Shown here in pieces: positions 1,336 through 17,494 of a stretch of DNA of 64,000 bases; position 1 is the stretch's first letter; every line of letters starts with the position of its first letter. The position numbers were made by a program, and so were the translations under genes. The notes beneath the pieces are model-generated. The model did not search any database and was not told where the DNA came from. It was given only the letters and a program-made list of their open reading frames with translations. Source of the stretch: an uncultured Fibrobacterota bacterium (lineage in GTDB: Bacteria; Fibrobacterota; Chitinivibrionia; Chitinivibrionales; FEN-1185). Location: positions 31,484 to 95,483 of the forward strand of contig CAVWBU010000034.1 in assembly GCA_963753345.1 (NCBI GenBank). The letters are read 5' to 3'.

Positions 1336-2691
1336 GTGGAAAAGTTTTTTGATTTCTTCATTAGCAAGCTTGAAAGCATATGGCACAATTTCTACTCATC
1401 CATTTTGCTTTCCGCGGTCGTTATTTTGAGTATAATTGCTTTTTTTAATAGCTCTCCTCATTGGTGTTTAATTTCATTGTGCCTAGGTGCTGCTGTAATT
1501 GTCATTTTCCTGTGGTTTGCTACGCATCATTTGCCAAAAGTACCTAAAGGTAAAATCGGAATTGCTATTTCCTTAATTTATGACCGGGAGTCTGAAGCCA
1601 AACAGGTCGAATTGGATTTCATTACTGCTTTACGCAATTTACTTCAAAGAGATCCTGATTGTGCAAATATCGGAATGGTTGTCTTGCCAGAATATGTGTC
1701 GCTGAAACTGCAAGATACTGCCAAATTTGAAAAGATTCTCAGAAAATGCAGAGCGCATATGCTTCTATATGGATCTGTTAAGCGGCGCAACATACAAGGG
1801 AAGGAAATGCATTTATTGAATGTTGAAGGTTTTATAAGACATGCTCCAATTCCGGTCGAGATAAGCAAGAGATTTGCCGAGGATTTTGCATGCTCAATAC
1901 CGCGAAAGTTAATGCTCCCGACCGAAAATGATGCTCTCATCTTTGAAAGCGCATCTACTTGGTTTGATTTGAGTGCACGTTATGTAATTGGTGTTGCTGC
2001 ATATCTTTCGGGATCGGTGGCGTATGCTGAGAAAATGTTTCTTCAAGTTGAAGACTCACTAAGGAAGTTAAAGTCGGCCCCTCCTTTCCTTCAAACGATT
2101 GCTAAGAAACTGCCATTCCGCTTTATCGAATTATATCAAATTTGGCAAAGTGCAGTTCATAGTGCTTACATCGCATCAGAGGATATTAATCTTCTTACAT
2201 TCGAGGATACTCTGAACGACAAACTCTTAGCAAGAGACCCAAAACACTATAGCGCTTGCCTTGCGAAATCGATTTCTGAATTTGTCTTACGCAGAAACAT
2301 CAAAAAGGCAAAAGAATATTTACTCAATGTAGGTAGCAATAAAGATGCGACATGGCTTTATAACCTTGCTTTTTTATTCTGTTATGAAGGTGATTTGCCC
2401 AATGCACATGAGCATTACCGAAAAGCATTTAGAATTGCAGTTGGAAATGTAACTGTCCCTCTTCAGTGCGAGGAATTTATTCAAAAAATATTGATAAAAG
2501 AGCCTGGAAAAGACCAATTGTATTTCTCCTTAGGTCTTATAAACTACAATGCAAAAAAAGACTACTATGCCGCAAAAGATGATTTTACACAATTCATTGG
2601 AACAAAATGGGCAAATAATTTTCCGAATGAAAAGACTTTGTCTGAGAAACTGATAAAGCGGTGCAACGAAAGAATAGAGAAAATGACTTAG
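1336..2691 (+). CDS. Membrane-anchored TPR-repeat protein
   Basis: Two N-terminal hydrophobic helices; C-terminal TPR-like motifs (WLYNLAFLFCYEGDLPNAHEHYRKA, LYFSLGLINYNAKKDYYAAKDDFTQF); AT-rich. Confidence 0.75.
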   Translation: MEKFFDFFISKLESIWHNFYSSILLSAVVILSIIAFFNSSPHWCLISLCLGAAVIVIFLWFATHHLPKVPKGKIGIAISLIYDRESEAKQVELDFITALRNLLQRDPDCANIGMVVLPEYVSLKLQDTAKFEKILRKCRAHMLLYGSVKRRNIQGKEMHLLNVEGFIRHAPIPVEISKRFAEDFACSIPRKLMLPTENDALIFESASTWFDLSARYVIGVAAYLSGSVAYAEKMFLQVEDSLRKLKSAPPFLQTIAKKLPFRFIELYQIWQSAVHSAYIASEDINLLTFEDTLNDKLLARDPKHYSACLAKSISEFVLRRNIKKAKEYLLNVGSNKDATWLYNLAFLFCYEGDLPNAHEHYRKAFRIAVGNVTVPLQCEEFIQKILIKEPGKDQLYFSLGLINYNAKKDYYAAKDDFTQFIGTKWANNFPNEKTLSEKLIKRCNERIEKMT

Positions 2692-2811
2692 AAGGCCACC
2701 GCGATAGCAAATAGAGGAATCACAGCCAACAACACGCAATGGAATACCATTTCCGCTGTCGCCTTGTCGCATTGCTGATGGTGTCATGTCAGGCAATAGA
2801 AAGTCAAATTT

Positions 2812-3906
2812 ATGAAAAGTCACATTACAGTTGGAACCAATCAAGATGACCAATATCTAGTTGACCATTTTTTAACAGGCGATCAAATACGCTGGCCTGT
2901 TCCAAAAGATGCAGAAATTGGTGATACTGTGTATTTACTTATTCCCTCATTATCCGGTTCTATTATTGCCAAAGGAATTGTTGCGACAACTCCTATCAAA
3001 AGCAATACTTGGCAATCAAAATATGAGTGCGCCTTGGAAAAGATTCGGTTCTCAGTCAACCAGCCGTATATTGAGGAAATTGCGGAAAGTATTCCAGAAT
3101 GGGAGTATCCTAAATACGCTCGTTCCTACACAACAATACCCGATGCACATGTAAATAACTTTGTTTCAATAGTTGGGGATTTTGATGATAGACCGCGTCT
3201 TTTTAGAGAAGTGAAAGAAGAAGAAATCATGAATGCTCTGGAAAATAATCTTTTCAGCAAAGTTGAAATAAAACTTCTTGGCTATTTTCTTGCAGCGCCA
3301 AACAACACATTAAACGCGATGCAAATGGCATCACTCATGGGGTATCCCAAATTTAATTCCGTCAATCCAATTATTGGATCGATTGGAAAGAAAATCAGCG
3401 AAAAGTATATGATTCATCCAAGTTGGTGGTCTCAAGAGGACCCCAATTGGTGGTCAGTAATTGCTGACGGAGAAGAAGATGAATACTTTTTTTGGACACT
3501 AAAGCCGCAAATCGTGAAGGCTTTGAAGAATGCAAATTTCCCCATCAAAGACGGATTAGAGTATGAGCCTGATGAAATCGCAACCATTGAAGATGGTAAT
3601 GAAGAAGGTAGAAGAATAAACGTCTTTGTGAGCATTTATGAACGCGATGCAGCCAATCGCAAGGCATGCATAGCGTTCCATGGGTACAAGTGCTCGATTT
3701 GTAACTTTGATTTTGAAAAGGCCTACGGAAAGATTGGGAAAGGTTACATTCAAGTTCATCATATCATTCCCCTAAATGAAACAAAAACCATTGTAAAGGT
3801 GAATCCCAAGACCGATTTGGTTCCAGTATGCGCAAATTGTCATGCGATGATACATAGAAAAAAACCTGCATATTCCCTATTGGAAATGAAGTCCGAGTTG
3901 ACTTAG
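2812..3906 (+). CDS. HNH endonuclease (McrA-like C-terminus) with a possible EVE/PUA-like N-terminal domain
   Basis: YERDAANRKACIAFHGYKCSICNFDF...YIQVHHIIPL...DLVPVCANCHAMIHR is an HNH/zinc motif typical of modification-dependent restriction nucleases. Confidence 0.85.
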   Translation: MKSHITVGTNQDDQYLVDHFLTGDQIRWPVPKDAEIGDTVYLLIPSLSGSIIAKGIVATTPIKSNTWQSKYECALEKIRFSVNQPYIEEIAESIPEWEYPKYARSYTTIPDAHVNNFVSIVGDFDDRPRLFREVKEEEIMNALENNLFSKVEIKLLGYFLAAPNNTLNAMQMASLMGYPKFNSVNPIIGSIGKKISEKYMIHPSWWSQEDPNWWSVIADGEEDEYFFWTLKPQIVKALKNANFPIKDGLEYEPDEIATIEDGNEEGRRINVFVSIYERDAANRKACIAFHGYKCSICNFDFEKAYGKIGKGYIQVHHIIPLNETKTIVKVNPKTDLVPVCANCHAMIHRKKPAYSLLEMKSELT

Positions 3907-3926
3907 TCATAACTCCTACATTCCCC

Positions 3927-4100
3927 CGCCGGGTGCCCTGCCCCTCTTACCAAACTCCAACATGACCCGTGTGCCACAATTATCCCTGCTCATGCATCAT
4001 CAATCCCGCACACTCTTTTCATTCCCCCGCCGTCAACCCCCCTCCTAAAACCCACAATTCCCCCGGTCTTCATTTATTGTAACGAAAGACAAAGGAGCAC
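3927..4100 (+). repeat. Intergenic direct repeat, copy R1
   Basis: cgccgggtgccc...cgtgtgccac...cattcccccgccgtcaacccc...cccggtcttcatttattgtaacgaaagacaaaggagcac; aligns by eye with R2-R4. Confidence 0.85.
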
Positions 4101-4542
4101 ATCGCCGTCGCTCATTCTCTGCTCCTCGCTCCCCGCATCCCTCGCCTATTTCTGTTTCTCCGTCCTCACATAGATCCCATTCGCACTGCGCCCCGACACC
4201 TTTCCCGCTTGTGTTGCGTCCCGACGGGTGGCCGGATCTTCTCTCTAATTTTGAGACAGGCTGCACATCCCCCGTCAGGATATTTCTTTTGTTAGTATTT
4301 TGTTCTTGGCCTATTTTGCTTTGTGAAGCGAGATGGAATTACTATATTATCCAATGCACCCGCAAAAGGCAATACAGCGGATGTGTCCAGCCTACGCAAG
4401 AAATCATTCGCACGCCGCCCGGCAGAGTGCCGTTTGTTCGTCTTGACCGATTTCATTTGAAGACGGGCAGGAGCCCGCCTGGTCCCGAACGGCCGGACCC
4501 ATTCGGGAAAACGAACGTCACCGGAGAGGAGTTGAGTATTCC

Positions 4543-5007
4543 ATGGAACCCCAAAAAACAACCTTGTTGAGACAGGCTGTTGCAGCCGGAACGATCGTCG
4601 TTGCCGTTGCCCTGTGCGGCGCGAATTCGCTGGCCGCGACGCCGGCTTCGATGGCTGTTTACAAGAAAGGGTCTGCCCCGCTGGTTTTCAATCTATCTTC
4701 CGTAAAGAATGTGACCTTCGGCCCGACGGCTGCCGGAAAGCTGAGACCTGTTGCCAGGGTCGTGCATTCGATCAGGTTGCTTTCATCCGCTGCCGGCTGC
4801 AAGTTCAGCCTTACGGGCGAACCAGGGACCACGGCCCTGTTCAAGCTCTTCGATCTCAAAGGGCGCGAAATACTCTCCAAAGATCTGCTGTTGGGCAATG
4901 AAGGCGTCGGAAGAATGACGGTCCCTCCCATTGCCACCGGCCTGTACCTGGCCCAGCTCAAGAACGGCGCATCGTCAATCATGCAGCGCATCACTCTCGG
5001 TGAATAA
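4543..5007 (+). CDS. Small secreted protein with a T9SS-like C-terminal sorting domain
   Basis: Signal peptide; C-terminus FKLFDLKGREI...ATGLYLAQLKNG...RITL resembles a Por-secretion tail; RBS gaggag upstream. Confidence 0.75.
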   Translation: MEPQKTTLLRQAVAAGTIVVAVALCGANSLAATPASMAVYKKGSAPLVFNLSSVKNVTFGPTAAGKLRPVARVVHSIRLLSSAAGCKFSLTGEPGTTALFKLFDLKGREILSKDLLLGNEGVGRMTVPPIATGLYLAQLKNGASSIMQRITLGE

Positions 5008-5018
5008 GGAAAACCCTT

Positions 5019-8000
5019 ATGAAAAAAATCAACTTCGCGGCCCTTCTCGTTTTCGTTGCCGCGTGCTCCGTCCTGGCGGCCAGAATGACCATCACCAGCT
5101 ACGGCGTGCCGCACCGCTATCCCATCGGGCCTTTTGACCAGATCACGTTCGACGCAACCGGCCTGGTTGCCACCATCACCAGCCCGGGTTCACCGCAGCC
5201 CGTCGTTACGAAATATTACCTTGGCTATTCGAATTCCGTCGTCCTGGACACGGTTGGCGGGCCGATTACTTCGCTCAATGTCAACGCTACGGATAACACC
5301 ACCATTGCAATAGATTTCAACAGCATCGACAGCATCGTGTTCAGGCCGTCCGTTGATTCCACGGGCGACGACGACGCGGACGGGCTCAGCAACTATCTCG
5401 AACTCATGCTCTATCATACCGACCCGGAAAAGAGTTCCACCTCGGGCGACGGCATAGTGGACAAATGGAAAGTGTCGCATCAAAGCAACGGCATGCTCGT
5501 TGCGGACCTTCCGGAGCTTTCGGTCGCCATGGCAAAATTCCCGCAGGTATGGCTGGTGACCTCGTTGGATTCCACGGCGTCGGTTGAAAACACCGTTTCA
5601 AATACGTCCGGTTGGGGAAATCAGGAGCAATCCACCACGTCCACGACGGGCTCGCAGACCGCCAGCAACGAATTCGGCGTCAGTTTTGCCGAAGAGATGG
5701 GGTATTCATGGCAGTTTGGGTCGGTGGGGGCGCACGTTACTTTCACCATGGGCCAGCAATACAGTCATACCTGGCAGCAGGAAGTTTCCCAGGAAGTCGC
5801 GTCCTCCCGGCAGAGTTCGTACAACCAGACGCTCGGCCAGACCCAAACCGCAATAAGGCAGGCAGGCAAGACGATAAGCGGCGGTAAAATCACCGCGATG
5901 CTCAATCTCAAGAACACCGGCGCCGTCGGTTTTACCATGACGGACCCGCAATTCACGCTCTATGGAATCACGTTTGTCAACGGCGTTGTGGCGGAAACCC
6001 CCATTTGCAATCTGGCGACCGCCCCGGAGCTCAACGGCAGCAGCAGTGTGTTCAGCATCAATCCGGGCGCGACGGCCGTGGCCGGCGTGCAAGGCAGTCT
6101 GACGCTTGCGGAAGTGGCATATATCGGCACCTTCCCCATTCTCAAGGTCTCGTGCACGAGCGAGAACATATCCTACAACCCCACGCTTTCCGCAACGCCC
6201 ATGAATCTGTCCGACGTGATGACCAATGTCAGGTCGGCGACCGCGCAGGTGATCGTTGATTTCGACAACGAATTGGCCGGCCAGCAGTCTCCCCTGTCGC
6301 GGTACGTGGCCACGCTTAACAAATACAACCCCGCAAACCCGACGGTAGCCGGGTACGGCCCGGTCTACCTCGGTGAAATGCTGACGGAAATGGGGCTCAC
6401 CTATCATTTCGACTCTCTCGGATTCGTCGATGTAAACGGGCTCAAGCGCGGCGCGGCAAACGATTTCTTCAGCCGCCGATGGATTACAATGATCATCCAC
6501 GCAGCGGGCGGCGCACAACCGGGCGATACCGGTGTGGTGAACGTAGGGGCAAACGGCGGCCCGGACAGCGTCGTGGTAAAAACGGGCGACATAGTTTACG
6601 TATGCTATTCGGGCGACGACGACCGGGATTCGGTCCCGAACTGCGTGGCGAAACTCTATGGGATTTCGGACACGACAAAGTCCAAGAAATGGCATGATTT
6701 TGACGGCGACGGCGTTTCGAACTTCCAAGAGATTTACGGTTGGGTGCCGATAGGAGGCACAGACACGGTCCACACCGACCCGGCAAACCCGGACTGCGAC
6801 GGGGACGGTATCCTGGACGGCGCGGATCCCTATCCGCTCATTCCACACTTGACAAACGCGTCGAATCTGCTGTCCTTCTCCACGCTCGACAACACCGTGC
6901 TCATCGAAACGATCCAAATTTCCCCGCAATCCTCATTCGGCGCCCTTACCCGACCCCTCCCGGCGTTCCCGCGATATTATGCGGACCTCGATTCAATGCC
7001 TCTGCACTGCGTTGTAGTGCAGAACAGTATCGATTCCATCCCCATGGTGTACGATACCACGTTCAAAGACACGGTATCGACCTCGCCGCTCACCACCCGG
7101 TCGCGCTACAGGTTGATGTCCACATCTCTCGCTCAGCATGTCTTGGCGCTCGGGCCGGATACGCTTACCGTGGTGACGCAACCGATGACCGGCGGCTCTC
7201 CGAAAACATGGAAGATATCCGGTATTTCAACGCTTGAGAATGTGATGGGCGCTCCGCAGGCTTCCAACCTGCTTCCCGCAAACGTCTCCTCTACGGGGAG
7301 CCGATGGGCACGGATCGATATTTCCGTTCAAATGGTTTCCGAGCAAATCGCGGCCGATCCAAGGACAAGCGGCATCATCGTATTCCGATCGAGCGGTCCG
7401 AACTCCGACACGTTCGATCTCACCTCTCGAAACAGTCCCCTTGGCGCCGGAGAAAAGATAGGCACTCAGTCAAGCTGGGAAGTAGACACGGTTCTGTCCG
7501 CCCTAACGGCAAATGTCTCGTACACGTCGACGAACTTGAATTCCGGCACCGTGTGGAACTACCGCTCGGTACCGTACAATGTCGCAAATGGGAATATCTA
7601 TTACTACGGAGCCAGTGCGGGTTTCACGTCCGCAAAGACATGGGAAATCTGGGTGTCCACAACTTGGGACTCCTTTACGTGCGCTCTCAGCAATTTCGGC
7701 TCGGCAACCGTGCTTGCGATGAACATGCGTTACCGGAATGTCAACGGAGACACCGGCGCACTTTCCACGGCGTGGGTGAGCGGGCCGTATTCCTATATTT
7801 GCGCCAACGGGACCAAGTATCCGGTGAAGTGGGTCGATTCGGCGCAAGTGCATGTGCATGACAGCGTCTGGACCAATATCAGCATGCTCAATTTTACCCA
7901 AAACGTGCAGCTTCTGACAATCAATGTCGACAATCTTGCCGCGGGAGGTTTTACCGATCCGCTCAAGGTATTCAGCGGCGGCGTCGTGGCGGGGCAAGGC

Positions 8001-8195
8001 GCGTTCTGGGAACCCGGTCGAGACGGAAGCGCAACGTGCACCAATGTGCAGTTTACAAACAATATCGCCGTGCCCACGGCATCCAGCCCCAACGCGGTTA
8101 CATTCCAGTCCACTACCCATACGGAAACAAACTGGGGGGCCGGAACCTGGGCGGCCAATATCGGTCCGATGAAATTCAGGTGGTGGTTCAAGTAA
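5019..8195 (+). CDS. Secreted protein with a binary-toxin B / anthrax protective antigen-like pore-forming region and Ca-binding DxDxDG repeats
   Basis: DDDADGLSNYLE...TDPEKSSTSGDGIVDKWKV...LVADLPELSV, a Ser/Thr-rich beta-hairpin, then ITAMLNLKNTG, in the order seen in PA domains 1'-2; second DFDGDG/DCDGDG cluster; signal peptide. Confidence 0.75.
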   Translation: MKKINFAALLVFVAACSVLAARMTITSYGVPHRYPIGPFDQITFDATGLVATITSPGSPQPVVTKYYLGYSNSVVLDTVGGPITSLNVNATDNTTIAIDFNSIDSIVFRPSVDSTGDDDADGLSNYLELMLYHTDPEKSSTSGDGIVDKWKVSHQSNGMLVADLPELSVAMAKFPQVWLVTSLDSTASVENTVSNTSGWGNQEQSTTSTTGSQTASNEFGVSFAEEMGYSWQFGSVGAHVTFTMGQQYSHTWQQEVSQEVASSRQSSYNQTLGQTQTAIRQAGKTISGGKITAMLNLKNTGAVGFTMTDPQFTLYGITFVNGVVAETPICNLATAPELNGSSSVFSINPGATAVAGVQGSLTLAEVAYIGTFPILKVSCTSENISYNPTLSATPMNLSDVMTNVRSATAQVIVDFDNELAGQQSPLSRYVATLNKYNPANPTVAGYGPVYLGEMLTEMGLTYHFDSLGFVDVNGLKRGAANDFFSRRWITMIIHAAGGAQPGDTGVVNVGANGGPDSVVVKTGDIVYVCYSGDDDRDSVPNCVAKLYGISDTTKSKKWHDFDGDGVSNFQEIYGWVPIGGTDTVHTDPANPDCDGDGILDGADPYPLIPHLTNASNLLSFSTLDNTVLIETIQISPQSSFGALTRPLPAFPRYYADLDSMPLHCVVVQNSIDSIPMVYDTTFKDTVSTSPLTTRSRYRLMSTSLAQHVLALGPDTLTVVTQPMTGGSPKTWKISGISTLENVMGAPQASNLLPANVSSTGSRWARIDISVQMVSEQIAADPRTSGIIVFRSSGPNSDTFDLTSRNSPLGAGEKIGTQSSWEVDTVLSALTANVSYTSTNLNSGTVWNYRSVPYNVANGNIYYYGASAGFTSAKTWEIWVSTTWDSFTCALSNFGSATVLAMNMRYRNVNGDTGALSTAWVSGPYSYICANGTKYPVKWVDSAQVHVHDSVWTNISMLNFTQNVQLLTINVDNLAAGGFTDPLKVFSGGVVAGQGAFWEPGRDGSATCTNVQFTNNIAVPTASSPNAVTFQSTTHTETNWGAGTWAANIGPMKFRWWFK

Positions 8196-8235
8196 CGAGG
8201 GCGCCCTGGTGCTCCCAAAGAGATATTTTGGCGGA

Positions 8236-8400
8236 CGGGTGCCTGCCCCATTCCTCCGTGTGCCACTATCATCCCTGATCGTGCATCATCAACCCTGCAC
8301 CCTCTTTTCATTCCCCCGCCGTCAACCCCTCTCCTAAAATCCACAATTTCCCCTTAATTTTCCCGGTCTTCATTTATTTTAACAAAAGACAAAGGAACAT
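8236..8400 (+). repeat. Intergenic direct repeat, copy R2
   Basis: cgggtgcctgcccc...cgtgtgccactatcatccctgatcgtgcatc...cattcccccgccgtcaacccc...ttttcccggtcttcatttattttaacaaaagacaaaggaacat; ends 5 nt before the tcmP ATG. Confidence 0.85.
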
Positions 8401-8405
8401 CCTGC

Positions 8406-9239
8406 ATGCTTGTCGAAAACGACGGTCTTGTCATTCCGGAAGTCGGCGCCTGGGCAAAAGAGAAGTACGGCCTGGTCCAAACCTATTGCAGCATGTTTAC
8501 TGGAGCGATGAAACCTCCCAAATGGCAGGCGCTTGTCTATATTGATTTGTTTGCGGGCGCTGGTTTTGGAAGGATAAAGAACACTTCGGAAATCGTCCCC
8601 ACTTCGGCGCTGCTTGCCATTGACATCCCTGTGCGTTTTACGCGATACATTTCTTGTGACATAAACGCCGACAACATCGCGGCACTTCGGAACAGGGTTT
8701 CGCGTCTCTTTCCCGGTGTTGATTCCCGCTTTCTCTGCTGCGAAGTAAATACGGCTGTTGACCAGATCATCGCGGAAATGCCCGCGGCGGGCAAGGACCA
8801 TAAGGTACTCGCTTTCTGCTTCGTCGATCCATTCAAGCTCGACGACCTTGCATTCTCAACCATTGAGAGAATGTCCAAGCGGTTCATGGATTTCCTTGTT
8901 CTTGTAGCTACCGACATGGATGCCAACAGGAATGTCGCGCCATACATGGCCCCGGAAAATACGACCGTTGCCCGTTTCACCGGAAAAAAGGATTGGCGAA
9001 CAAGGTGGGACCCGCTATCAAATAAATCGTTCGGCCTATTTGTTCTTCACGAATTCTCCGCCCACATGCAGGACTTAAATTATAAACCGCAGCCAGTCGA
9101 GGAATCGGTCCTTGTACGGAATTTTCAAAAGAACGCGCCATTGTACCGGCTGGCATACTTTAGTCGGCACGATCTCGGCAAGAAATTCTGGAGAGAAACG
9201 AAGAAGTCTGCCGACCCTCAGCTGAACTTATTTGAATAA
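8406..9239 (+). CDS. tcmP: Three-Cys-motif partner protein (SAM-methyltransferase-like fold)
   Basis: VGAWAKEKY, YIDLFAGAG and FCFVDPF motifs; adjacent to a DUF5131 gene, the known pairing. Confidence 0.85.
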   Translation: MLVENDGLVIPEVGAWAKEKYGLVQTYCSMFTGAMKPPKWQALVYIDLFAGAGFGRIKNTSEIVPTSALLAIDIPVRFTRYISCDINADNIAALRNRVSRLFPGVDSRFLCCEVNTAVDQIIAEMPAAGKDHKVLAFCFVDPFKLDDLAFSTIERMSKRFMDFLVLVATDMDANRNVAPYMAPENTTVARFTGKKDWRTRWDPLSNKSFGLFVLHEFSAHMQDLNYKPQPVEESVLVRNFQKNAPLYRLAYFSRHDLGKKFWRETKKSADPQLNLFE

Positions 9240-9248
9240 GGACGACGC

Positions 9249-9971
9249 ATGTCTTCCAACTCCCGCATCGAATGGACCGAAAGCACCTGGAACCCCATAA
9301 CCGGATGCACCAAAATCAGTCCGGGGTGCAAGAACTGCTATGCCGAACGCATGGCGAGACGCCTGCGGGCCATGCGGCAGCCCAACTATCGAAACGGGTT
9401 CAAGGTCACCATTCACCCGCACGCACTGGGACTCCCGCTCGCATGGAAGAAGCCCCAGATGGTTTTTGTAAATTCAATGAGCGACCTGTTTCATGCCCAG
9501 GCGCCGAGGGAATTCATTCTCGAAGTCTTTGGCATCATGAACAGGGCGTGTTGGCACGTGTACCAGATCCTCACCAAACGAGCGGATCGGCTTTCAACTA
9601 TGGATTCTTCTTTGCCGTGGTCGGAGAACATCTGGGCAGGCGTGACGGTCGAAAACCGGGAGTATTTGCAACGGGTCGAAAACCTTCGTAGGTGTCAGGC
9701 AAAGAACAAATTCATTTCCTTTGAACCCCTGCTGGGCAGCGTTGGACCTGTCAACCTTGACGGAATCAACTGGGTGATCGCAGGCGGCGAATCCGGCCCC
9801 CATGCGCGTCCCGTCCAAAAGGAATGGATCACCGAAATCCGCGACCAATGTATTGCCCAGGACAAGCCCTTTTTCTTCAAACAATGGGGCGGAGTTCGAA
9901 AAAAGAAGAACGGCCGAGAACTTGACGGCCGCGTCTGGAGCGAGTTTCCGGCGCGCTTGACAGTCGCGTAG
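9249..9971 (+). CDS. DUF5131 / phage Gp37-Gp68 family protein
   Basis: IEWTESTWNPITGCTKISPGCKNCYA (Cx6Cx2C), FVNSMSDLFH, SFEPLLG, WVIAGGESG, FFFKQWGG. Confidence 0.92.
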   Translation: MSSNSRIEWTESTWNPITGCTKISPGCKNCYAERMARRLRAMRQPNYRNGFKVTIHPHALGLPLAWKKPQMVFVNSMSDLFHAQAPREFILEVFGIMNRACWHVYQILTKRADRLSTMDSSLPWSENIWAGVTVENREYLQRVENLRRCQAKNKFISFEPLLGSVGPVNLDGINWVIAGGESGPHARPVQKEWITEIRDQCIAQDKPFFFKQWGGVRKKKNGRELDGRVWSEFPARLTVA

Positions 9972-10030
9972 GTAGACAGCCTTCACCTTGTACCCTGACC
10001 GCAACCTCGGTTTACTTTAGGCAAGACATG

Positions 10031-10141
10031 TCATCGTCGAGAATTCACTCCCATGCTCCCCCGCCGTCACCCCCTCTCCTCCCGCCCGCAATTTCCCCTC
10101 AATTTTCCCGGTCTTCATTTATTTTAACGCCGGAGGAGCAC
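10031..10141 (+). repeat. Intergenic direct repeat, copy R3 (5'-truncated)
   Basis: ctcccccgccgtcaccccctctcct...caatttcccctcaattttcccggtcttcatttattttaacgccggaggagcac. Confidence 0.8.
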
Positions 10142-10198
10142 TGGAAATTCGATCAAGCGGTGCATGAACTTTACATTTAACGTCATATGAGGATGTCT

Positions 10199-10756
10199 AT
10201 GAGAAAGGTTGTTTTTGCGATCAATATTACCACCGACGGGTACTGCAACCACACGGACATGATTGCCGACGATGAGTTGCTCAACTTCTATGCCGGGCTG
10301 CTGGGCAATGCAGGCATCATCCTCTTCGGCCGGATCACCTATCAACTCATGGTTCCCTATTGGCCCGACGTCGCCAGGAACCAATCCGGGGCAGGGCCAA
10401 CCAAGGAGTTCGCTCGCGTGTTCGACTCGCTCGACAAGGTCGTATTCTCCACCACGTTGAAACATGTTGAGGGAAACAACACGAGAATCGTGCGCGCAAA
10501 CCTTGCGGAAGAGGTGCTCACGCTCAAGCAGCAGCCTGGAAAAGACATTTTCATAGATAGTTTGAGCATTGCGTCCCAGCTTTCGGACCGCGGTTTGATT
10601 GACGAGTATCATTTCGTGGTTCACCCGGTTGTTGCCGGTAAAGGACCGCGGTTATTCGACACCGTAACGCTGCAGGAGAGGCTTCTGCTAGACTTTATCG
10701 GTTTGAAAACCTTTCAATCCGGCGTCGTTGCCCTTCACTACAGAAAGCATACGTGA
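10199..10756 (+). CDS. Dihydrofolate reductase-like / RibD C-terminal domain protein
   Basis: [52 protein letters not shown]. Confidence 0.9.
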
Positions 10757-10818
10757 GGAGAAACGCCGTACGAAACCTGGCGTATTCGAAAATTGAGAGC
10801 AAAAAGATGAAAGGAACG

Positions 10819-10999
10819 CGCCGGGTGCCCTCTCCCTCATCTCGGTCTCAACCATAACTCGTGTGCCACTATCATCCTCAATCGTGCATCGTCCCGCCTA
10901 AACACTCTCCGCATTCCCCCGCCGTCAACCCCTCGCCCTTGTCCCACAATTTCCCCTCAATTTTCCCGGTCTTCATTTATTTTAACGCCGTAGGAGCAC
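10819..10999 (+). repeat. Intergenic direct repeat, copy R4
   Basis: cgccgggtgccc...cgtgtgccactatcatcc...cattcccccgccgtcaacccc...caattttcccggtcttcatttattttaacgccgtaggagcac. Confidence 0.85.
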
Positions 11000-11063
11000 A
11001 GTGCCGATGATTACCAAAACACCAACCATCAGCAACGTTACCTTCGCGCGAAAGGGGGCTTGC

Positions 11064-13166
11064 ATGAAAAAATCTCCGGTGCAGCTTATTCTTGGTATCG
11101 GGTTGCTGATTTTATTTACGAGCGCGGGGCATGCCCAATGGGTGCAGACAAACGGGCCGTATGGCGGGGACATCAACGCCCTCGCATTCAACGGCGCCAC
11201 TATTCTTGCCGGCACTGAAGGAAGCGGCGTTTTTCTCTCCACCAACAATGGAGCAAGCTGGTCTCCGGCCAATAACGGGCTCTTGGTCGGCTATATCTCT
11301 TGTCTTATGGTGAGCGGAGATACCATTTACGCCGGAACCAACGGCGGGGTCTTTTTCTCCACCGATAACGGAACAAGCTGGGCCGCGAGCACCAGCGGTC
11401 TCACACGTCTCAGCGTCACGGCCCTTGCGAAGAGTGGCGGCACTATCTTTGCCGGAACCGGCGGCGGGGTCTTTCTATCCACCAATAACGGAACAAGCTG
11501 GACTGCGGCCGATAGCGGGCTTTCGAGCGCCAATATCTACGCTCTTGCAGTAAGCGGGAGTGCCATCTTCGCCGGAACCTGGGGCGGCGGCGTTTTTCTA
11601 TCCGCCAATAATGGAACGAGCTGGACCGCGGTGAATAGTGGGCTCACGAGCCTTAATGTTATGGCTCTTGCGGTGAACGGGAGCGCCATCTTTGCCGGGA
11701 CCAGTGGCGGCGGCGTCTTCCGTTCAACAAATAACGGAACAAGCTGGACTGCGGTTGATTCTGGACTTACGTCGACAAGTGTCCGATGTTTTGCGGTAAA
11801 CGGCAGCGACATCTTTGCCGGGACAAATGGCAACGACCCTGTTTTTCTCTCCACCAACAACGGATCAAGCTGGACCGCGGTCGACAGCGGCATTACCATT
11901 GCCAATGTCTTGTCCCTCGCAGTAAAAGGCAGCGACATTTTTGCCGGAACTTTTTACGGCGGCGGCGTCTTCCATTCAGCCAATAATGGAACAAGCTGGA
12001 CCACTGTCAACAATGGTATTACGAATAGCCGCATACTTTCCATCGCGACAGGTGACAGCGGCGTCTATGCAGGTACGTGGGGCGGCGGAATTCTGTTTTC
12101 CGCGGACAAAGGAACAAACTGGGCCGCGGTCAATGCCGGCAATCCGGCTTACAAAAATGGTTTATACGCCCAAGTGCTTTCTCTTATCGCAAGCGGCGGA
12201 AAAGTGTTCGCTGGCATTGAAGCATGGGGCGTTTTCCTTTCTACGGATAAGGGGTTGAGCTGGACTTCGGAAAGTATTTCGAGTGCAAGCGTCGAGTGTT
12301 TTGCCGCCAAAAGCGACACCCTCTTTGCCGGGGCTTACCAGGGCGGCGTTTTTCTTTCCACCAACAGCGGTACAAGCTGGACCGCGGACAATAACGGACT
12401 AACGGACTCTGATGTCGTGTCTCTTACAGTGAGCGGCGGCAATATTTTTGCCGGGACCTCCGGCGGCGGCATCTTTCGTTCAGTCAATAACGGATCAAGC
12501 TGGACCGCGGTTGATTCCGGACTTACGAGCCTGACTATCAACGCTCTTGCGGCAGTCAGCGGCATTGTCTTTGCAGGGACGACTAGCGGGGTTTTTATAT
12601 CCGCCGATAACGGCGGCCATTGGACCGCAAGCGATTCCGGCCTTACCCGTCTTTACGTCACATCTTTTGCCGTGATCGGCAGCAACATTTTTGCGGGGAC
12701 TGATGGCGGCCGTGTTTTTCTCTCCGCCAATAACGGCGTAAGTTGGATTGCGGAGGACAGCGGGCTTCCGAATGCCTCCGAAACATATCTTGCCGTAGGC
12801 GACAGCACGCTCTATGCCGGAATTTACGGCAGCTGCGTGTGGCGGCGACCGCTCCCTGAAATGACGACGGCAATCGATAAAAGCACCAAGCGAGCGGCTT
12901 CACAGCAATTACTTATCAAGATACGCTCGCTTGGCCATGGGAGCACGGCCGCTAGGATTGATTTTTCACTGCCACATTCCGAGCGGGTCACGATGAGCAT
13001 TTACAACCTTGCCGGCCGTGAAATAGCATCTCTTGTCAATGACTTTCTTGGATCGGGCCCGCATAGCATACTTTGGAATACCCAGAACATTGCCGCAGGT
13101 TGTTATACAGTAAGAATGAAAGCGGGATCGGATACATTCATAAGAAGTATTCCGATTTTACGTTAG
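11064..13166 (+). CDS. BNR/Asp-box beta-propeller repeat protein with T9SS-like CTD
   Basis: About 14 repeats of IFAGTxGGGVFLSTNNGTSWTAVDSGL; signal peptide; CTD IYNLAGREI...AAGCYTVRM; upstream in-frame starts at 11001 and 11007 are possible. Confidence 0.9.
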   Translation: MKKSPVQLILGIGLLILFTSAGHAQWVQTNGPYGGDINALAFNGATILAGTEGSGVFLSTNNGASWSPANNGLLVGYISCLMVSGDTIYAGTNGGVFFSTDNGTSWAASTSGLTRLSVTALAKSGGTIFAGTGGGVFLSTNNGTSWTAADSGLSSANIYALAVSGSAIFAGTWGGGVFLSANNGTSWTAVNSGLTSLNVMALAVNGSAIFAGTSGGGVFRSTNNGTSWTAVDSGLTSTSVRCFAVNGSDIFAGTNGNDPVFLSTNNGSSWTAVDSGITIANVLSLAVKGSDIFAGTFYGGGVFHSANNGTSWTTVNNGITNSRILSIATGDSGVYAGTWGGGILFSADKGTNWAAVNAGNPAYKNGLYAQVLSLIASGGKVFAGIEAWGVFLSTDKGLSWTSESISSASVECFAAKSDTLFAGAYQGGVFLSTNSGTSWTADNNGLTDSDVVSLTVSGGNIFAGTSGGGIFRSVNNGSSWTAVDSGLTSLTINALAAVSGIVFAGTTSGVFISADNGGHWTASDSGLTRLYVTSFAVIGSNIFAGTDGGRVFLSANNGVSWIAEDSGLPNASETYLAVGDSTLYAGIYGSCVWRRPLPEMTTAIDKSTKRAASQQLLIKIRSLGHGSTAARIDFSLPHSERVTMSIYNLAGREIASLVNDFLGSGPHSILWNTQNIAAGCYTVRMKAGSDTFIRSIPILR

Positions 13167-13299: not shown

Positions 13300-14244
13300 A
13301 TGGAGTTCATTGCTTTATTGGTTTTCATCATCACCCAGATTGTAATTATTCCCTTGGTGATTATCGGCGCAATCATCGCTACATATAAACAGGTCTTTGT
13401 CAGCAAGAAGTTGGGTGTCTCTAGCACGGCCATTTCCGTTATCAGCGCCAGGTGGTTAATGGATGTTTTTGGCCTTAGAAAGGACACGGCTTCGGTTAGG
13501 TTATACCGCGTTCTTCCCAATGCTTACGTATTTGGCATGTGGCTCCTTTTTTTCCCCGCCTACCTGCGGTACAAAATCAGCGGAAAACATAGAGGCTTTG
13601 CATCAATTAAAGAAGAGGGCAAGGAGGGCATGGCAAACGTAGCCATTACCAGAACAGTTCATTTTGATAGCCTGGTCAATAACTCAATAAATCAAGTAAG
13701 GCAATTTGTCGTTATGGGAGCCGGATACGACACAAGGTGTTATGGACATCTTAAGCAAAACAACGTAACGTTTTTCGAGCTTGACCAGCCGGCGACACAA
13801 AGACTAAAAGTAAAATGCCTGAAACAAGCCGGCATTGACGTATCTCATGTTACGTTTCTTGAAGTGGATTTTTCCAAGGATAACTGGCTTGAAAAGCTAA
13901 AGGATGCCGGTTTTAGTCCGGACAAAAAAACCATCTTTTTATGGGAAGGCGTAACACTTTACATCTCTGAAAATGATGTCCGAAAAACAATACACGCGGT
14001 CAAGGAGCATTCTTCTCGTGGCAGCATACTGATCACAGATTTGTATTCTAAAAGATTAATCGCTCTCAGAGGTGTGAAAGCGACAAATGAGCAGTTTAAT
14101 TTTGCACTGGACTTCTCATCTGACAGAGAAAATGTTCTAAAAACATTCCTGGAAAGTGAAAATGTAAAAGCAGGCAACTTTTATTTTATGGGGCACAAAA
14201 CCAAGAAAGGTGCGTTTGGGGTAGTCGTTGAAATTATTCTGTAG
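13300..14244 (+). CDS. SAM-dependent methyltransferase, leucine carboxyl methyltransferase-like family
   Basis: RTVHFD, QFVVMGAGYDTR, FFELDQP, FLWEGVTLYI; N-terminal hydrophobic segment. Confidence 0.88.
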   Translation: MEFIALLVFIITQIVIIPLVIIGAIIATYKQVFVSKKLGVSSTAISVISARWLMDVFGLRKDTASVRLYRVLPNAYVFGMWLLFFPAYLRYKISGKHRGFASIKEEGKEGMANVAITRTVHFDSLVNNSINQVRQFVVMGAGYDTRCYGHLKQNNVTFFELDQPATQRLKVKCLKQAGIDVSHVTFLEVDFSKDNWLEKLKDAGFSPDKKTIFLWEGVTLYISENDVRKTIHAVKEHSSRGSILITDLYSKRLIALRGVKATNEQFNFALDFSSDRENVLKTFLESENVKAGNFYFMGHKTKKGAFGVVVEIIL

Positions 14245-14383
14245 GGTTTTATTCTTAATTGATTTTCTCGAAATAAAAGTGTGCGCCTCCTCTCTCTCCT
14301 CTGCATTTTCTTTTTCTTTCTCATAACCCCGCCCTCCCTGTTGCGGATTGTGGATTTCGGATTGCTTCATAAAAAGATATCAC

Positions 14384-14762
14384 GGTGGGGGATGTCTCCC
14401 CCTGGCCCCCGGCTTCCGGCACTGCGCGCCGGTGATCCGGGGGCACACCCCCTCGTGGGTAGCCCCCAAGCAAGTTTGGTTACAAGATAGACACATCGGC
14501 TGCGGGGGCACCGAGAAAGAGAGTTGAATAGTTGAAGAGTTTCAAATTCAAAGAGGAATCCCCGCCTGATTCATTGCGGATACCGATTTGCGCGAGAAAA
14601 AGTAATTGACTGAATAGAATTCCGTTGCCGCGCGTTAGGGGCGACTGGAGGGCGTGCTGGAGCACGATGCCGCCCGGACCCGCCGCGCAAGCGGTATTGG
14701 GGGCCGTGGCGGCCCGGGGCCGAAGGCCGACGACCCTTGGAAGTACCCGACGGGGTAAACCT
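14384..14762 (-). repeat. Bipartite structured dispersed element, inverted near-full copy
   Basis: Reverse complement of the 35521-35927 copy (ggtgggggatgtctccccctgg...ccccctcgtgggtagccccc...gggggcaccgag...gttgaatagttgaa...ccgcgcgttaggggcgac); lacks the 5'-most GGGCGTTCCCC hairpin. Confidence 0.85.
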
Positions 14763-17330: not shown

Positions 17331-17494
17331 CTCTTCGTGGTGCCCCCGCAGCCGAAGTGTCTATCTCGCAAACGAACTTTCTAGGGGGCTACCCACGAGG
17401 GGGTATGGGTGCAGACCCCGCAGGAAAGCTTTACAAATCATGAAAACATACGCTTTCCGAGGAGGCTGCACCCTAGGGGGACGCCTCCCCCACC
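17331..17494 (+). repeat. Dispersed element, module B only
   Basis: ggtgcccccgcagccgaagtgtctatctcgcaaacgaactttctagggggctacccacgaggggg...ctagggggacgcctcccccacc. Confidence 0.85.

Follow-up and report, generated by a model that had tools for sequence, protein, structure and literature searches.

A repeated upstream module, probably a reused promoter, precedes unrelated genes at a single locus of an uncultured Chitinivibrionales bacterium

The attC sites of integrons are imperfect palindromes that fold as single strands and carry RYYYAAC and GTTRRRY ends, and attC clusters without an integrase exist. Putative mobile promoters (PMPs) reportedly go back to an original study by Matus-Garcia, Nijveen and van Passel in 2012. 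They are highly similar non-coding sequences upstream of unrelated coding sequences (CDSs) in one genome, which by the published criterion share 80% identity or more across 50 nt or more in the interval from −150 to −50 relative to the start codons, and their mode of movement is unknown (PMC3575422). Correia elements, ERIC and REPINs are promoter-bearing miniature elements named in the same work (PMC3575422). In the CUP regulon of IncN plasmids, every one of several co-oriented operons stands behind a repeat that combines a promoter and a regulator site, and the region is remodelled by insertions, by deletions and by recombination between the repeat copies (PMC5371602). Here we analysed a 64,000-nt stretch of DNA (the window, G000:C34:31484-95483) on the 95-kb contig C34 of a metagenome-assembled genome (MAG) with 55.9% GC, called G000, in which four copies (R1 to R4) of a module 110-190 bases long lie upstream of unrelated genes. 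The comparisons below suggest that this repeat is probably a reused and locally propagated upstream module, comprising a promoter and a ribosome-binding site (RBS), rather than a recombination site.

A repeat finder run over the window revealed a single family of four co-oriented 127-nt copies with 61-100% identity to the reference copy (Table 1). The 17-mer CCCGGTCTTCATTTATT from the 3′ core had four exact matches in the window, all on the + strand, against 0.19 expected, and none of 100 shuffles reached four. Both core sequences were exact in all four copies and did not occur again in the 4,516,072-base, 55-contig assembly. Searching the genome with an nhmmer profile of the four copies recovered these four alone (E 1e-33 to 1e-41); the next match, at E 0.011, and the weaker ones spanned profile positions 8-58, corresponding to the 5′ part alone, which belongs to the dispersed element S described below. 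A preliminary description of this DNA had reported four co-oriented copies with invariant cores, and it proved right in every point that could be tested; the genome-wide search for the repeat that it had suggested placed all copies at one locus in one orientation. The two 3′ variants that it had distinguished, one in R1 and R2 and the other in R3 and R4, were seen in the alignment, as was the end of similarity after an RBS-like sequence, the Shine-Dalgarno (SD) site. In R2 the SD sequence AAGGAA is followed 8 nt later by ATG, and in R4 AGGAG is followed by ATG 10 nt later; R3 is joined to a leader that belongs to its cargo gene, and behind R1 there is a gene-free gap of 440 nt. When 13 proteins of the region were compared all against all by BLASTP, no module-headed protein matched another at E<=1e-3, consistent with the earlier view of the cargo as unrelated and with the PMP criterion of non-paralogous downstream CDSs.

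Alignment of the copies shows a module of three parts, namely a decaying copy of S (missing in R3), a C-rich stretch with coreA, and coreB with its boxes and predicted −10 element, after which the SD site follows. CoreA is an invariant block of 14 nt in the C-rich stretch, ~50 nt upstream of the −10, and coreB is an invariant 40-nt block. The 3′ core of every module contains TATTTT in gene orientation (TATTGT in R1), 25 nt before the ATG in R2 and 23 nt before it in R4, with the SD site 8-12 nt further on, and two boxes with an 11-nt period (AATTTCCCCTC and AATTTTCCCGG) stand where a −35 element would be. Among the five gene-adjacent copies (R2, R3, R4 and two copies of the sister species G001), identity was 97.1% in coreA and 97.5% in coreB, against 64.1% before coreA, 71.1% between the cores and 73.8% in the SD segment. 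Degradation is seen in both copies that no longer adjoin a gene. R1 is missing exactly one 11-nt box and has a changed −10, and its 3′ neighbours are a dispersed-repeat fragment and a separate promoter-like site; the R3 remnant of G001, a genome that lacks the RibD_C gene found behind R3 in G000, is no longer recognised by the module profile. Since there is no −35, two 11-nt boxes occupy its place and an invariant coreA lies upstream, the predicted promoter would be activator-dependent.

TATTTT is the commonest hexamer upstream of the tRNA genes, present in 19 of 49 unique 60-nt upstream sequences (0.91 expected), mostly 9-33 nt before the tRNA and often with TTGnnn ~17 nt upstream of it. Across 1615 crude upstream regions it occurred 277 times in sense and 150 times in antisense orientation, with a peak 30-75 nt before the starts, whereas TATAAT showed no such bias in the same regions (74 sense, 83 antisense); TATATT was likewise enriched upstream of genes. 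From these counts TATTTT is the putative −10 element of the organism. At the level of the whole genome, the tRNA upstreams and the sense/antisense counts give a −10 that appears to be TAT(A/T)TT and not TATAAT.

Other features of the module sequence were considered and set aside. A minus-strand promoter (TAAAAT) was suggested by one scan match, confined to R4, and gene upstream regions show no excess of TAAAAT (103 occurrences, 143 of its complement). The 14-nt sequence AATTTCCCCTCAAT is shared between the box region of the module and the upstream of a tRNA-Thr gene (G000:C26:35991), where TATTTT lies 13 nt downstream instead of 16 nt as in the module; as a single match with another spacing, absent from the nhmmer report, it was taken for a curiosity. 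Small open reading frames (ORFs) in the module are interrupted between copies by 11-nt and 45-nt indels, so that the frames are not kept, and neither these nor a reading of the module as a coding remnant or integrase scar was retained, both as judged by eye.

In its 5′ third the module consists of a decaying S copy; S is a separate small dispersed element of ~70-95 nt that extends from CGCCGGGTGCCC to the palindrome CACGATCA-N4-TGATCGTG, which is preceded by an upstream hairpin and an A-rich spacer. R3 has no S, and its similarity to the other copies starts exactly at the S 3′ end. S alone was found elsewhere in the assembly, at six sites with at most 3 mismatches, and in 5 of 81 genomes of the order at one to six copies each, with no matches for a control pattern. 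Its 3′ end is sharp, and it lies mostly upstream of co-oriented genes. Two S copies in G004, another species of the genus, are 2.9 kb apart and share 91% identity across 93 nt. A partner sequence, GACGACrGTGGCACA, stands 30-60 nt downstream of S at three G000 sites and could pair with the start of S. An Rfam scan of 13 S-element loci gave three matches at E<=1, none of them on the S motif. In both module copies of G001 (L024/L072 and L025/L073, L numbers denoting loci) the loop of the S palindrome is enlarged by a 45-nt insertion that contains a small hairpin of its own; none of the four G000 copies has this insertion.

BLAST detected the whole module in 2 of 41 related genomes, G000 itself and G001, in which two copies are full-length and a third is a remnant. 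Among 18 loci from a metagenome scan with a 19-mer, 16 lay in unrelated DNA and matched by chance; the two real ones (L024 and L025) are 99.97% and 99.96% identical to G001 contigs, and across 185,579 species genomes these two G001 copies were again the only ones found. The order in G001 is a TcmP gene (5′-truncated and with an in-frame stop), a dispersed repeat, DUF5131, the R3 remnant, ~730 nt of dispersed repeats without RibD_C, a module copy, the propeller gene, an XhoI-type restriction-modification gene pair, a dispersed repeat, a module copy and a gene for an LCM-family methyltransferase. The gene pair (L072, G001:C256:3928-5572) encodes an XhoI-family restriction endonuclease and an N6/N4 DNA methylase and is absent from the window. 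Synteny between the two species is otherwise largely kept, and the differences are deletions, pseudogenisation and the restriction-modification insertion, not cassette swaps. The contigs listed from four metagenome DNA runs, which are short and break in the modules, contained no example of a module leading into other cargo.

The copies are mosaic, and their similarities cut across gene position. The nearest relative of R4 is the copy that precedes the G001 LCM gene (110/124 identical positions), and the copy before the G001 propeller gene is closest to R2 (101/111) and R3 (78/83). Serial duplication, as proposed previously, agrees with the shared 3′ variants and is too simple for such mosaics. 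Copies within one genome are 74-89% alike, compared with 88-91% for orthologous genes between the two species; since they are no more alike than orthologues, the module family predates the species split, with later exchange between copies.

Two cargo genes, RibD_C and LCM, form single-gene units whose surroundings are unrelated from one related species to another. The 644-nt RibD_C unit is 92% identical to a unit in G002 and has shorter counterparts in G004 (only slightly shorter, 92%) and G003 (85%), these three being other species of the genus; its neighbours are unrelated in each of the four species, and no repeat or mobile-element gene marks its ends. Behind R3 it has 41-53 nt of its own leader, conserved in another species, so the earlier proposal that cargo arrived with part of its own leader stands for this unit. 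Its 5′ breakpoint varies by species (10146, 10175 and ~10190), which points to illegitimate rather than site-specific joining. The hairpin at its 3′ end was rejected as a common cassette signal, being unique in the genome. One module copy of G001 is joined exactly at the ATG of the LCM gene, and the LCM genes of G000 and G002 have two other, unrelated upstreams. In G002 this gene (L044, G002:C27:360-5449) lies in four pieces, separated by three insertion sequences with different transposases (DDE_Tnp_1, DDE_Tnp_1_4 and rve).

If the module is a reused promoter, transcription would start a few bases past TATTTT and give short leaders, and one activator-type factor would bind the boxes and/or coreA; the units behind R2 (TcmP-DUF5131), R3 (RibD_C) and R4 (propeller) would thereby be expressed alike, with R1 left as a decaying orphan. 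The copies would have arisen, and would still be reshuffled, by ordinary recombination, that is by duplication, gene conversion and illegitimate joins near the SD site, while selection would keep the two cores only. The label "promoter/RBS-like and portable" given to the repeat by the preliminary description fits a 3′ core that contains the TATTTT of the genome and then an SD site, and a G001 copy fused exactly at an ATG.

Several observations weigh against this explanation. At 17 nt upstream of TATTTT the modules read CCTCAA, with no TTGnnn as at many tRNA promoters, and a sigma-70 consensus scan found no + strand site within any module. No OmpR-type regulator is encoded on contig C34, other regulator families not having been searched, and no RNA run is among the 11 listed sequencing runs that contain the stretch. 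Within the region used to define PMPs identity is borderline: the RibD_C and propeller upstreams pass (81.1% over 53 nt) and are the only pair to do so; TcmP and propeller reach 79.4% over 97 nt, and TcmP and RibD_C 83.7% over 43 nt, with whole-module identities of 82-89% across 72-141 nt. The 5′ edge of similarity coincides with the S 5′ end in five copies and with the S 3′ end in R3. Lastly, the behaviour of RibD_C and LCM, as units of one gene each that relocate, is as compatible with gene capture as with promoter spread.

The array had at first been taken for an integron-like gene-capture or expression array, and this was not supported, as neither a recombination site nor a recombinase goes with the array and the module is neither an attC nor an attI site. 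The module has TTTTAAC alone (3′ end, + strand) and no partner box, and its folding z-scores of −1.48 to +1.83 on both strands are no better than those of shuffled sequence. G000 does hold a true integron on another contig, with quite different repeats: an integron integrase on C18 (TIGR02249, 430.6 bits, cut-off 265) lies beside some 20 attC-type repeats of ~150 nt with RYYYAAC/GTTRRRY ends and small minus-strand ORFs between them (G000:C18:2308-32026; L076, L077), and a true attC of this genome folds at −50.1 kcal/mol with paired ends. A profile built from the genome's own attC sites had 35 matches at E<=0.01, none of them at the array; the sole match on C34 (63772-63923 of the window, − strand) is ~50 kb from the array, in the last 230 bases before the contig end. 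Further attC sites were seen on C26 (seven, 280587-292397) and singly on six other contigs, C34 included. None of the eight Phage_integrase (tyrosine recombinase) matches in the genome is on C34, in agreement with the preliminary remark that no recombinase adjoins the array. The array is better read as a probable case of promoter reuse than as a new integron-like gene-capture machine.

Gene capture might still operate without integron sites, with the module as a cassette joint, served by a site-specific enzyme encoded elsewhere or acting as portable homology, so that new genes land behind a ready-made promoter. We consider such a platform unlikely, although a number of features speak for it. 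The boundaries are sharp, with the 5′ edge at an S-element end and the 3′ edge 0-10 nt from a start codon in 4 of 6 copies, and the coincidence of module and S edges, which plain duplication does not predict, is its main support. A copy sits exactly at the LCM ATG in G001 and none does in G000, LCM having three unrelated upstreams in three species; the RibD_C unit has unrelated surroundings in all four species and keeps its own leader at the junction with R3; the relationships of the copies are independent of gene position; the RBS of the G001 XhoI-type nuclease gene (AGGAGCACTTTTCCGATGATT) resembles the module 3′ end; and a plastic island adjoins core genes. Against a platform, there is no tyrosine recombinase on the 95-kb contig and only an HNH-domain gene is adjacent, and the module family was found in two species only (BLAST of 41 relatives, the metagenome scan and the 185,579 species genomes). 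The RibD_C 5′ breakpoints differ between species as they do for illegitimate joins, its 3′ hairpin is not a common signal, and the copying is old, copies within a genome being no closer to each other than interspecies orthologues.

Capture by portable homology would use S as a one-sided anchor, with illegitimate joining at the SD site, a mechanism that goes by the name of homology-facilitated illegitimate recombination. A recombinase-independent "promoter-first" form of it, with S elements as the homology arm and the shared SD region as microhomology, strikes us as rather improbable. Ordinary recombination would then copy the promoter block before any gene that carries an S, or place a relocating single-gene unit like RibD_C or LCM downstream of an existing module, and an expression-ready array would be built without attC sites or an integrase.

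The module could also be a mobile miniature element with an outward promoter, comparable to Correia elements, that transposes as a whole and lands upstream of genes. Its 5′ third does belong to a dispersed family with a patchy distribution, whose members usually lie upstream of co-oriented genes, and hairpin ends like that of S are used by HUH transposases. However, the promoter part accompanies S at this one locus only, with all copies co-oriented within 7 kb, R3 has the promoter part without S, and by eye the alignment contained neither terminal inverted repeats nor target duplications. Neither G000 (94% complete) nor G001 (73% complete), both carriers of S, gave a match to the Y1 transposase family, and across 41 relatives there was no co-occurrence, 30 encoding Y1 transposases and 5 carrying S. 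Transposition of the whole module therefore seems distinctly unlikely.

That the module is a structured RNA leader common to the genes, either a riboswitch or another cis-regulatory RNA, is very unlikely. The length of the module, its conservation, its non-coding nature and its place immediately before start codons would suit such a leader, and the published PMP set included riboswitches (PMC3575422). However, the module folds no better than shuffled sequence on either strand, the pyrimidine-rich strand cannot pair with itself, and most of the module would stay untranscribed, the predicted −10 being located downstream of the conserved blocks. Rfam returned no match in the whole window at the gathering threshold and none in G002:C27:1-6500, and an E-value scan of positions 3700-11100 gave one irrelevant match (mir-301, E=3) and nothing relevant at E<=5. 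An assembly artefact, in which a repeat was collapsed or misjoined, is suggested by the MAG origin of the genome and by short-read contigs that break inside modules, but it is barely credible given that the four copies differ by 11-39% and so are not one collapsed repeat, that Logan contigs of other runs (one of which may be the source sample) span 8319-9993, 10274-10972, 10951-11235 and 10957-11453, and that L024 and L025, single contigs of two separate assemblies from the G001 species, cross module copies with both flanks; next to no cover of positions 2500-4235 in all four DNA runs proves nothing in this respect.

The array lies in a plastic, fast-changing accessory and defence island in which single genes come and go. 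A low-GC block (38-44%) 5′ of R1 contains two ORFs without a family and also encodes an HNH-domain protein that weakly matches type IV restriction enzymes and ZorE. The 154-aa protein after R1 matches a type IX secretion system (T9SS) sorting domain below threshold (21.9 bits, cut-off 23), the basis of its earlier "CTD" label, and the 1058-aa protein, previously called "PA-like", has no Pfam, NCBIfam or PADLOC family. TcmP and DUF5131 after R2 together match a PADLOC defence candidate; a RibD_C-domain protein follows R3 and a BNR/Sortilin-type propeller follows R4. The island adjoins core genes (SurA-like, S41 protease, Tmk and SecA), which begin near 17.6 kb. Structured repeats dispersed across the genome occupy intergenic gaps around the array (14347-14521, 14647-14735 and 17331-17402 of the window) and also intergenic parts of L024 and L025.

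Table 1. Positions of the module copies, their signals and cargo, and the S elements (window coordinates unless a contig is named)
Feature	Position	Strand	Details
Repeat-finder copies	3968-4094, 8257-8383, 10002-10128, 10860-10986	co-oriented	127 nt each
S within modules	3927-3994, 8236-8283, 10819-10886		in R1, R2 and R4
S elsewhere in G000	C23:63303, C40:91830, C48:29552, C49:95923, C52:24664		further loci L053-L071
R1, probably orphaned and decaying	3927-4100	+	degenerate S part; coreA 4023-4035; SD-like AAGGAG without a start codon behind it
R1, position of the −10	4075-4080	+	reads TATTGT; coreB without one 11-nt box and 67% identical to other copies
Genome-wide dispersed-repeat fragment in the 440-nt gap after R1	4226-4289	.	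16 BLAST matches, on 13 other contigs
Separate promoter-like site	4321-4350	+	TTGTGA-16/18-TATATT/TATTAT; could serve gene 4543-5007 in place of R1
Cargo after R1	4543-8195	+	154-aa protein (4543-5007); 1058-aa protein (5019-8195)
R2	8236-8405	+	S part with palindrome 8260-8283; coreA 8312-8324; two 11-nt boxes; coreB to 8383
R2 signals	8375-8380, 8392-8397, 8406	+	TATTTT; SD AAGGAA; ATG
Cargo after R2	8406-9971	+	TcmP 8406-9239; DUF5131 9249-9971; PADLOC candidate PDC-M41 A/B
R3, no S part	10032-10145	+	coreA 10057-10069; coreB; TATTTT 10120-10125; SD GGAGGAG 10132-10138
Junction of R3 and RibD_C unit	10145/10146	+	7 nt past the SD of R3
RibD_C single-gene unit	10146-10789	+	own leader; first ATG 10187; conserved ATG 10199; stop 10756; 33-nt 3′ hairpin
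R4	10819-11006	+	degenerate S part 10863-10886; coreA 10915-10927; coreB; TATTTT 10978-10983
R4 start signals	10992-10996, 11007	+	SD AGGAG; ATG
Cargo after R4	11007-13166	+	BNR/Sortilin-type beta-propeller; weak T9SS sorting tail
LCM-family methyltransferase gene	13300-14244	+	43% GC; no module in G000, module-headed in the sister species

The locus offers a clean and datable example of probable promoter reuse, in which tandem copies reveal the bases kept by selection (the cores, at 97%) and those that drift, and in which two orphan copies, both decayed, are natural "knock-outs". It gives a first working picture of the promoters of Chitinivibrionales, with their predicted −10, and a testable candidate regulon in an uncultured lineage, here a peat bacterium. 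It also calls for caution, as repeats can become spaced as in an integron with no such machinery involved, even where the genome has a true integron elsewhere. Should the capture reading be true, newly arrived genes would be wired to a ready promoter without a recombinase.

Compared with the systems outlined at the start, the array resembles integrons in that one repeat, 110-190 nt long, recurs between unrelated single genes or small operons that all point the same way. It differs in that the module is non-palindromic, has no RYYYAAC/GTTRRRY end pair, lies 5′ of each gene with a predicted promoter of its own, and is unmatched by the attC profile of the genome, with no integrase nearby. Like the promoter-bearing miniature elements it is a small repeat tied to promoters, and its S part is dispersed and hairpin-bearing; yet S alone is dispersed, and the promoter part stays at one locus with no inverted ends or target duplications seen. 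The likeness to the CUP regulon lies in unrelated co-oriented units, each behind a copy of one upstream repeat that carries a promoter and a regulator site in CUP (PMC5371602) and a predicted promoter and candidate regulator sites here, and in the reshaping of the region by insertions, deletions and recombination among the copies. CUP, however, is in the leading region of a conjugative plasmid with the known repressor ArdK encoded at its head (PMC5371602), whereas the present array is chromosomal, in Fibrobacterota (Chitinivibrionales), and of unrelated sequence, with the two 11-nt-spaced boxes and coreA as candidate regulator sites; its promoter without a −35 would point to activation, not to repression as in CUP. 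As in PMPs, a similar non-coding sequence that is no known insertion sequence element or RNA family lies 5′ of unrelated CDSs. The published PMP families are mostly pairs (PMC3575422), whereas here four copies are co-oriented within 7 kb, and the best-conserved part of the module falls in the last 50 nt before the start codon, a region that the published screen left out.

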